From IMG/VR virus record IMGVR_UViG_2718218100_000006: a DNA stretch of 48,504 bases; one strand, 5' to 3'. Source of the stretch: a virus (taxonomy: Duplodnaviria > Heunggongvirae > Uroviricota > Caudoviricetes). Position numbers: made by a program. Below are positions 27,001 through 30,000 of the stretch, one piece after another. Positions within the stretch are counted from its first letter, which is position 1; each line of letters begins with the position of its first letter.

Positions 27001-30000
27001 ACCAGCTGGTACTGGTGAATGCCCCGGATATTTATCTGGCGGATGACGGCGGCGTGGCAGTGGATATGTCCCGCGAGGCATCACTGGAAATGCAGTCTGA
27101 GCCGGGCGGCGACAGTACCACGCCGTCCCCGGTGGAGCTGGTTTCCATGTTCCAGACAGGCAGCGTGGCCATCCGTGCGGAGCGCTGGATCAACTGGCGT
27201 CGTCGCCGTACTGCGGCGGTGGCGGTGATCACCGGAGTGAACTACGGCAGTGCGTCCGGCGGCTGAGTCTGATAAGGAGGACGGGAGGCGTGCGCCTCCC
27301 GTAACAGGTTATGGCAAAGATCCGATATCTGCAGGGCACGCATGATGCCCGGGCCGGGGATATCCGTGATGTGGCACAGCCGTGTGCGGAGGTGCTGGTT
27401 CGCCTGGGAAAGGCGGAGTACATCACGGTGCGACGTCCGGCAGGTCAGAAAAAGAAACGTGATGCGGAGCATGGCGAATGTGGAACCTTTTACGGCGAAC
27501 CCGAAAAAACCAGAAATCAGGACGTGACGTAAGAGAGGCGGGCTGGACCAGCCTGTTTCAGGCGGTGGCTGAGCCCTTTTCCGGCGCCTGGCAGCAGGGC
27601 GTGAAAGCCGATCCTGAAGCCGTCCTCTCCTTTCATGCGGTGTTTGCATGTATTTCGCTGATATCCCAGGATATCGCCAAAATGCGGCTGCGTCTTATGC
27701 AGACGGATGCGCATGGGATACGCAGGGAAACGCGCCGGGGGGATATTGCCCGCCTCTGTCGTCGTCCCAACGCCCAGCAGAACCGCATCCAGTTTTTTGA
27801 ACTGTGGCTGAACGCCAAACTGCGTCATGGCAATACGGTGGTGCTGAAAATCCGTAATGCCCGGGGGCAGATCAAAGAACTGCGTATTCTGGACTGGAGC
27901 CGGGTTGAACCTCTGGTGGCGGATGACGGCGAGGTGTTCTACCGCATCACGCCGGACCGGAACTGCGGGATCACGGAGGCGGTGACGGTGCCTGCCCGGG
28001 AAGTGATCCACGACCGGTTTAACTGTTTTTTTCATCCGCTTATAGGATTGCCGCCGGTGTATGCCGCCGGGCTGGCGGCCACGCAGGGGCATCATATTCA
28101 GGAAAATTCGACGTCTTTTTTCAGAAATGGCGGCAGGCCGTCCGGGGTGATTGAGATCCCCGGCAGTATTACGGAAGAAAATGCGAAAAAACTGAAGAGC
28201 AACTGGGACAGCGGGTATACAGGCGAAAATGCGGGGAAAACGGCCATTCTGAGCAACGGGGCAAAATACAACCCCACGACGTTTTCACCGGTGGATGCGC
28301 AGACGGTGGAACAACTGAAGATGACCGCTGAAATTGTCTGTTCGGTGTTCCGTGTCCCGGCCTACAAGATTGGCGTGGGACAACCGCCTTCCAGTGACAA
28401 CGTGGAGGCGCTGGAGCAGCAGTATTATTCCCAGTGCCTGCAGACGCTGATTGAGTCCATTGAACTGTTACTGGATGAGGCGCTGGAAACGGGGGAAAAC
28501 GAGAGTACAGAATTTGATGTCACCACGCTGCTGAGAATGGACAGTGAGCGGCGCATGAAAACGCTGGGGGATGCGGTGAAAAATACGCTTCTCACGCCCA
28601 ATGAGGCCCGTAAACGGGAGAACCTGCCGCCCCTGGCCGGCGGTGATGCACTGTATCTTCAGCAGCAGAACTACAGTCTGGAGGCGCTGTCCCGTCGTGA
28701 TGCCCGTGAGGATCCGTTCGCGTCTGCCGGGAAAACAGTTTCATCACAGCTGCCTGACGGCGCATCTGACGGTAATAAGGCAATCAGTGAAACAGAGCAT
28801 GATGCGGTGAAAGCGATGTTCAGGGGGGATACTGAGAAAATGACGGAACGGGAACTGTCCATTATTCGTGCACTGGGAGAAGAATTTTCCACAGTGCTGG
28901 CGGATTTACAGCGCACATTTGAGGAGAAAATAGCCGCGCAGGCACAAACGTTTGAAGAAAAACTGGCTTCTCAGTCTGTGGTATTACAGAAGTGCGTGAC
29001 GGGTGATGATGTGCGTCCGATGCTTGAGCAGATGGTGAAAGAGGCAGTGAGCCATATTCCTGTTCCGCGCGACGGTCGTGACTACGATCCGGATGTTCTG
29101 CAGAAGGCGGTGAATGATGCGGTCGCAAATATTCCGCAGCCGGCAGACGGCAAAAGTATCACCCCGGATGATGTGCGTCCGATGCTTGAGCAGATGGTGA
29201 AAGAGGCAGTGAGCCATATTCCTGTTCCGCGCGACGGTCGTGACTACGATCCGGATGTTCTGCAGAAGGCGGTGAATGATGCGGTCGCGAAAATACCGGT
29301 ACCGGCAGACGGTAAAAGTATCACTCCGGATGATGTGCATCCGATGCTTGAACAGATGGTGAAGGAGGCGGTAAGCCATATTCCTGTTCCGCGTGATGGT
29401 CGTGACTACGATCCGGATGTTCTGCAGAAGGCGGTGAATGATGCGGTCGCGAAAATACCGGTACCGGCAGACGGTAAAAGTATCACTCCGGATGATGTGC
29501 ATCCGATGCTTGAACAGATGGTGAAGGAGGCGGTAAGCCATATTCCTGTTCCGCGTGATGGTCGTGACTACGATCCGGATGTTCTGCAGAAGGCGGTTCT
29601 GGAGGCGGTGAGTGCCCTGCCGGCTCCGCAGGACGGGCGTGATGCCACGGCACTGGAAATACTCCCCGCCATTGACGATTAAAAATCCTTTCCCCGGGGC
29701 TCGTATGCCACACACCAGGGTGGACTCTGGCGGGCGTATGAAAAAACGTACGGGATGCGGGGATGGGAATGCCTGGTTGACGGGGTGGCGGATATTGACG
29801 TCAGCATGACGGGTGAACGGTCGTTCTCTGTGGTGGTCCGGCAGAGCAGTGGCCAGCGTACGGAAAAAACATTTTCCCTGCCGGTGATGCTCTACCGTGG
29901 TGTGTTCAGAATCGGCGAAACTTACCACCCCGGCGATACGGTGACGTGGGGGGCTCGTTGTGGCACTGCAACAGTATGACCGGTGATAAGCCCGGAGAAG

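Follow-up and report, generated by a model that had tools for sequence, protein, structure and literature searches.

The 48,504-nucleotide (nt) virus record IMGVR_UViG_2718218100_000006 (Caudoviricetes; the whole stretch is called the window below) contains an open reading frame (ORF) of 734 amino acids (aa), 27478-29682, in which a phage portal protein is followed in frame by a tandem repeat of 162 base pairs (bp). In this study, the array is probably to be read as the stalk, variable in length, of a phage protein in its own right, which we call Y (PHROG 1289) and which is fused to the portal in this E. coli prophage lineage and probably sits docked on the portal inside the capsid. That two genes are fused here, and that the repeat is a stalk feature of the whole Y family, we hold with high confidence; the interior docking of Y on the portal is only slightly favoured. 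The window gene is best filed as a portal-fused member of the Y family that codes for a variable-number repeat and is partly pseudogenised.

Only aa 1-454 of the ORF qualify as a portal protein, scoring 272.9 bits against a cut-off of 39.1 for the Pfam family Phage_portal (PF04860). This part is collinear with the stand-alone portals of phages FSL SP-016 (451 aa) and PAJU2 (464 aa) up to the motif '...AVKAMFRG'. The remainder belongs to another protein family. An exhaustive HMMER (phmmer) search with the Y moiety against 1.84 billion cluster representatives gave 5,583 matches at E<=1e-3 and 615 at E<=1e-30, with E values down to 2e-136 against stand-alone proteins. Most of the matches are proteins of 250-550 aa that align end to end, and among the best 150 of the 5,583 a portal domain was present in two and a Met start in 140. 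A stand-alone protein of 400 aa (P0122), 54% identical to the Y moiety, starts exactly at Met455 of the window product, and ORF59 of phage BP-4795 and the corresponding gene of phage 1717 start at the Met that corresponds to the window's ATG at 28840. The intact orthologue of the window gene matches phrog_1289 at E=3.2e-197, with homology over the full length.

The portal and a separate Y are adjacent in Salmonella phage FSL SP-016, Pseudomonas phages PAJU2 and IME307, E. coli phage BP-4795, phage 1717 and Rhizobium phage RHph_X2_26, with portal and Y lengths of 451 and 347 aa in FSL SP-016, 454 and 461 aa in BP-4795, and 454 and 407 aa in 1717. The two genes overlap by 4-8 nt in most of these six annotated phages and are separated by a 4-nt gap in RHph_X2_26. 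By scanning with an alignment of the C-terminal domain of Y, taking one genome per species and classifying the neighbouring ORFs, we further found 36 loci holding both portal and Y in other bacteria, mostly of other genera (Enterobacterales, Pseudomonas, Marinobacter, Pseudoduganella, Rhizobiales and several alphaproteobacteria, and others). All 36 encode TerL, the protease-capsid fusion, a portal of 443-484 aa and a separate Y of 167-556 aa in this order, and the gp6-like connector directly follows Y in 28 of them. The window has the same order, with the Y moiety between the portal moiety and the connector. The same scan in IMG/VR gave only near-identical E. coli loci, which were used for copy-number statistics and not for diversity. 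Stand-alone Y proteins such as PAJU2 ORF007 (BAG74991), FSL SP-016 AGF88086 and BP-4795 ORF59 (CAD88860) are homologous to the window product from Met455 on, have the same synteny, and have in common with the window lineage the N-terminal helix, the helical modules with the motif [IL]PxPxDG and the C-terminal domain. However, they are encoded by their own gene with a start overlapping the portal stop, whereas Y of the window is fused to the portal and truncated.

NCBIfam holds no model for Y, literature searches (fused portal, PAJU2 ORF007, virion proteomes) returned no paper on it, and an exact look-up of the 734-aa product of the window found no record. Stand-alone Y is annotated as 'portal protein' or 'putative portal protein' in IME307 (L006 4971-5975) and RHph_X2_26 (L239 2849-4270), and PHROG 1289 is labelled likewise; the fused E. 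coli gene is the apparent source of this mislabelling. A precomputed Pfam match, PF28083.1, is present on many of these proteins and may cover the repeat or the Y region.

The fusion is located at a poly-G tract at the end of the portal moiety. In relatives with five G residues (G5) the portal ends in FRGILRK-TGA and its stop overlaps the ATG of Y (ATGA), as in other genera, while in relatives with six (G6), such as the window, the sequence reads FRGDTEK-MTEREL and portal and Y form one ORF. The end of the FSL SP-016 portal, '...AMIRGFLTK', with its TGA overlapping the ATG of 'MNERELS...', can be aligned with '...AMFRGDTEK-MTERELS...' of the window. Counted by exact patterns, 76 IMG/VR contigs carry G5 and 41 carry G6. 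Exact 30-mers found G6 at 1,364 places in 781 complete E. coli genomes and G5 at 243 places in 180 genomes, where G5 is undercounted because its flanks vary. Among 82 distinct haplotypes of the flanks (1,370 nt), 60 occur with G5 and 24 with G6, two of these with both; the tract thus differs in length between otherwise identical sequences, and several other haplotypes differ by just 1-3 mismatches. The G6 haplotypes belong mainly to one diversified clade and most G5 haplotypes are 25-75 mismatches away from any of them, so that the fusion is a derived and persistent state. G5 is the ancestral layout, and a few recent switches or sequencing errors have occurred; the confinement of G6 mostly to one clade argues against frequent switching of the tract. 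The reading frame of Y is uninterrupted in 22 of 27 G6 and 33 of 38 G5 loci of the E. coli type in IMG/VR, and the genome records of phages 2851 and YYZ-2008 bear the fused allele.

Two other explanations of this junction were set aside. Programmed frameshifting at the G tract was left as a side hypothesis, since the site is not a canonical one, having no in-phase X XXY YYZ heptamer, and other genera lack the tract. A nested scaffold gene expressed by internal initiation was dropped as the primary model, as the ATG at 28840 is simply the ancestral start of Y; the upstream protease-capsid fusion gene presumably supplies a scaffold-like segment of its own, which is a further ground for dropping it. 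A second portal-Y fusion with a different junction was found in a protein of 1,237 aa (P0210), which carries about 25 'PEPEPLPDI...MV..AV' modules, in which the stalk repeat takes a proline-rich form. In the Stx phage records AP012530, AP012538 and AP012540 (Stx2a_F349, Stx2a_WGPS4 and Stx2a_WGPS8) the portal is labelled a pseudogene, and the matches are 2,201 nt and not 2,202 nt long. The label may be wrong, as the match length fits the ancestral two-gene G5 form.

The initial annotation had reported an in-frame 162-bp tandem array with near-identical recent 54-aa units in the portal ORF, and this was reproduced. Tandem Repeats Finder detected a single array with a period of 162 bp, 3.7 copies, 96% matches, no indels and a score of 1032, lying in frame within the 734-aa ORF. 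Units 1-3 are 90.7-95.7% identical to each other at the DNA level, and unit 4 is 76-81% identical to the others, its divergence being in the second half. Each 54-aa unit is composed of half-units of 25 and 29 aa, both with the [IL]PxPxDG motif. The differences between copies (for example 10 nt against 5 nt for copies 1 and 3) are mainly synonymous codon changes, and therefore the repeat peptide is under selection. The array lacks the G-X-Y runs of collagen-like fibres, with which Y has only the C-terminal fold in common. Weak Pfam matches in the repeats (TetR_C_35, DUF4244, FliG_N) were under the cut-offs and were dismissed as helical noise. The 385-aa antisense ORF, already described as spurious, is confirmed as a by-product of the repeat: stop-free antisense stretches in Y genes of other Enterobacterales reach just 105-176 aa.

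Comparison of relatives bears out the suggestion that copy number varies. Among non-redundant E. coli-type IMG/VR loci, intact Y proteins are 245 aa (2 loci), 299 aa (1), 353 aa (10), 405 or 407 aa (32), 461 aa (7), 515 aa (1) and 569 aa (2) long. These classes are exact 54-aa steps around the 407-aa class of the window and the frame is always kept, so the array is a coding variable-number tandem repeat. We infer unequal recombination or slippage between near-identical units as the cause of the steps. The units have also been shuffled: between the window and an ST131 prophage the portal part is 98.8% identical, array units 1-3 are 79-94% and unit 4 is 97.5% identical, and the best-matching units are not at corresponding positions. 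Such a pattern would be expected from unequal crossing-over and conversion within the array.

AlphaFold2 was run on Y with an alignment of 85 sequences and gave a mean predicted local distance difference test (pLDDT) score of 84.7; it replaced a single-sequence prediction of the extension that was useless (pLDDT 40). The initial annotation had proposed to predict the structure of the repeat unit, and the model resolves each 54 aa into two modules of a helix and an [IL]PxPxDG loop, with one helix of 13-17 residues per half-unit and loops of about 12 residues between them (pLDDT 60-76). The C-terminal domain is predicted to be beta-rich with pLDDT of about 98. In the model, Y is thus built from an N-terminal helix of about 47 residues, a variable number of modules of about 27 aa and a highly conserved, two-lobed beta domain resembling family 5/12 carbohydrate-binding modules (CBM5/12). 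Across the family, 0-18 [IL]PxPxDG motifs were found per protein. In 90 family representatives the stalk is acidic, with a median charge of -0.085 per residue, and the tip is neutral. The C-terminal 127 aa of YYZ-2008 pass the Pfam CBM_5_12 model by a narrow margin (26.3 bits, gathering threshold 26.2), and another family member (P0125) scores 29.8 bits. The predicted fold is similar to solved chitin-binding domains and is matched best by the tail-fibre tips of phages 7-7-1, Milano and Pa193 and by phage proteins with collagen repeats; PHROG tail-fibre families match the domain weakly. PDB sequence and profile searches returned only designed helical repeats, which are compositional matches, and weak chitin-binding matches, with no solved structure of Y. 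A Phage_Mu_F domain was not found in Y proteins with Pfam at E<=10 or E<=0.001, and CBM_5_12 was the only domain seen.

The array looks C-terminal in the window because of a premature TAA stop, and the view of the repeats as the real end of the protein was not upheld. Intact orthologues have 861 aa and read 127 aa further; in YYZ-2008 the annotated portal gene spans 2,586 nt, coding for 861 aa, and overlaps the following gene by 4 nt, and the ST131 prophage also has an intact 861-aa gene. The C-terminal domain of Y is present in the window as an untranslated remnant only. The Y copy of the window is decaying, with a CAA-to-TAA change and a 1-bp deletion that together remove the C-terminal domain. 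The prophage of O157 strain Xuzhou21 has the same 1-bp deletion but a C at 29680, and its gene is called 'phage portal protein, frameshifted' by the Prokaryotic Genome Annotation Pipeline (PGAP). In IMG/VR the TAA allele is present in one contig and CAA in 75. The TAA contig (L025, IMGVR_UViG_2740892107_000008) has a repeat haplotype unlike that of the window, with 174 mismatches over 2,585 nt, and the shared TAA on different haplotypes is either a recurrent mutation or a transfer by recombination through the conserved unit 4. Both frame-changing events in the gene, at the portal-Y junction and in the CBM-like domain, fall in G runs.

The initial annotation had found it unexpected that a variable extension should face the capsid interior, and this topological puzzle is real. 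Portal C-termini end in the crown, inside the capsid, and therefore a Y moiety covalently tied there must be internal. Interior docking is favoured because the fused allele stays open, is diversified and occurs in phage records, and because a second fusion exists. A widespread HK97-type head module with a fused protease-capsid gene encodes Y between the portal and the gp6-like connector. As a possible mechanism, the N-terminal helix of Y would normally dock at the inner face of the portal, and the acidic stalk and the sugar-binding-like tip would project along the capsid axis, with the number of repeats determining how far the tip reaches. The most recent expansion in E. coli duplicated module pairs (54 aa, 162 bp), and in the lineage of the window G6 in place of G5 abolished the portal stop and joined portal and Y in frame. 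The tip may hold or guide the DNA end, may be released by the prohead protease and then ejected to bind peptidoglycan, or may act in assembly.

Several points weigh against an internal Y. Searches of the PDB and the literature found no experiment or solved structure that places Y anywhere. In overall shape Y resembles an external fibre, its N-terminus being helical, its shaft made of repeats and its tip CBM-like, and the repeat helices are predicted at moderate confidence only. A carbohydrate-binding fold has no obvious job in the capsid interior. Moreover, hitch-hiking or complementation between prophages could in part explain why the fused allele has persisted, and many O157 prophages with this module are defective (PMC2669165).

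In a rival reading Y would be an external, whisker-like neck or head fibre whose CBM5/12-like tip binds a surface glycan and whose stalk sets the reach; the G6 fusion would be a defect that is leaky or tolerated, free portal and Y being still produced by frameshifting at AGG-GGG-G or provided by sister prophages. We consider this possible, though rather unlikely. The fibre-like architecture, the fold matches to fibre tips and collagen-repeat proteins and the weak PHROG tail-fibre matches agree with it. Both alternative frames at G6 reach a stop at or just before the ATG of Y, so that slippage would restore a portal of normal size, and O157 carries many complementing prophages (PMC2669165). However, once attached to the C-terminus of the portal, a protein has no way to the outside, and the fused allele is found in hundreds of complete genomes, is diversified and leaves Y open at most of its loci. 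The different junction of P0210 is a further difficulty, and the absence of the poly-G tract from other genera, for example from SP-016, means that frameshifting is no conserved design.

Simple prophage decay, with the G6 tract, the TAA and the G-run deletion all inactivating and the repeats without current function, is quite unlikely. It would explain the two clear lesions in Y of the window, the PGAP call of the O157 copy as a frameshifted pseudogene and the scoring of Sakai prophages with this head region as portal-defective (PMC2669165), but not the fusion, as G6 alleles are usually full-length, spread over divergent backgrounds and present in phage genome records, and the mostly synonymous differences between copies indicate selection on the protein. 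The view of the initial annotation, in which the repeats extend the C-terminus of the portal itself, is very improbable; such an evolved extension would be comparable to the portal barrel of P22. The array does extend the portal in frame, the portal ORF running through the repeats not just in the window but also in roughly one third of IMG/VR relatives, and databases call the 859-861-aa product a portal protein. Nevertheless, the repeats are encoded by a gene of their own in 36 of 36 loci from other bacteria and also in most E. coli-type IMG/VR contigs, those with G5; the family is almost wholly stand-alone, and a single inserted G accounts for the fusion. A mis-assembled or collapsed repeat has a practically negligible probability. 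Short-read assemblies do often break at the array, and many 'partial' portal proteins sit on contigs of about 2 kb for this reason. However, phage YYZ-2008 matches the window gene at 99.8% with the same length. In a 60-row sample spread across 1,251 matching records of complete E. coli genomes, most genes had the length of the window gene and about eight were shorter by one unit. The length classes are, moreover, discrete steps of 54 aa.

The portal barrel of P22 and Sf6 is a helical portal extension inside the capsid on the portal axis, formed by one long coiled-coil helix. The window product resembles it as a helical extension of the portal polypeptide, in the fused lineage only; the barrel is part of the portal gene throughout its family, whereas the extension in the window is a captured neighbour gene whose product combines a beta domain with variable repeats and Pro-rich loops. 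In MuF-type proteins (SPP1 gp7, Mu gpF) the gene lies right after the portal gene, and gp7 is reportedly portal-bound and carried within the capsid. Y has the same gene position, and the location of gp7 is that proposed here for Y, but the two have no sequence relationship and Y has repeats and a carbohydrate-binding-like tip. Compared with CBM5/12 chitin-binding domains and phage fibre tips, the predicted domain of Y is carried by a portal-adjacent protein instead of an enzyme or a tail fibre, and it is disrupted in the window. The BACON repeats of crAssphage, called hotspots of evolution in one report (PMC6949934), are likewise in-frame tandem repeats; the window unit differs in being a 54-aa helix pair and not a folded domain, and in lying in a gene beside or fused with the portal.

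Table 1. Features of the portal-Y region of the window (positions in nt).
Feature	Position	Strand	Evidence or remark
Prohead protease-major capsid protein fusion gene, 645 aa	25329..27266	+	Pfam Peptidase_S78 aa 48-152, Phage_capsid aa 386-635
Portal moiety of the fused ORF, aa 1-454	27478..28839	+	Pfam Phage_portal aa 54-382, E=4.6e-81
Poly-G tract, G6 in the window; one additional G abolishes the portal stop, so that portal and Y are joined in frame	28823..28828	+	
Y moiety as translated, truncated, aa 455-734	28840..29682	+	ATG 28840 (Met455) is the start codon of stand-alone Y
N-terminal long helix of Y (predicted), portal-proximal	28840..29004	+	AlphaFold2 helix 3-49, pLDDT ~90
Antisense ORF, 385 aa, by-product of the repeat	28984..30141	-	ORF listing
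162-bp array, acidic helical-repeat stalk of Y	29005..29597	+	Tandem Repeats Finder; two [IL]PxPxDG half-units per 54 aa
Diverged end of unit 4 and linker (…LEAVSALPAPQDGRDATALEILPAIDD)	29598..29679	+	Conserved between lineages
Premature stop TAA (CAA, Gln, in intact relatives)	29680..29682	+	Alignment with YYZ-2008
Untranslated remnant of the C-terminal tandem CBM5/12-like domain of Y	29683..30062	+	
Second lesion, G6 against G7 in intact copies; 1-bp deletion, frameshift in the CBM-like domain	29948..29953	+	Alignment with YYZ-2008
gp6-like head-tail connector gene	30059..30385	+	Pfam Phage_connect_1; start overlaps the stop of intact Y

The protease-capsid gene keeps a constant position upstream of the portal in related modules. 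Protease and major capsid protein are encoded by one fused gene in nearly all of them, and by two ORFs in four loci (L110, L112, L117 and L120). A small ORF of 73 aa at 27311-27532 (WP_001063099 in relatives) runs 55 nt past the annotated portal start, and PAJU2, IME307 and SP-016 have one or two small ORFs at its place. Further downstream, the tape-measure gene is annotated as frameshifted in Xuzhou21 (L002 9343 onward), but the window has an open ORF of 1,080 aa at 33042-36284; these two near-identical prophages bear different lesion sets.

The repeat by itself is ordinary biology, and the portal-adjacent family and its natural fusion are moderately interesting. In practice, the 162-bp array breaks short-read assemblies and differs among strains, and thus bears on the typing of prophages in O157 and ST131 genomes. 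What is annotated as an 859-861-aa 'portal protein' in long-tailed Stx and other lambdoid E. coli prophages is the product of two fused genes. It is speculative, and unlikely, that Y forms an unrecognised class of portal-docked internal head proteins in thousands of HK97-type siphophage and prophage lineages, a detachable counterpart of the portal barrel or of a pilot protein, in which 54-aa helical units would set the reach, a peptidoglycan- or glycan-binding tip would act in DNA delivery, and the poly-G tract of E. coli would switch between non-covalent (G5) and covalent (G6) attachment. Y is a large conserved family that always lies between portal and connector, and the natural fusion gives a testable prediction on its virion location.

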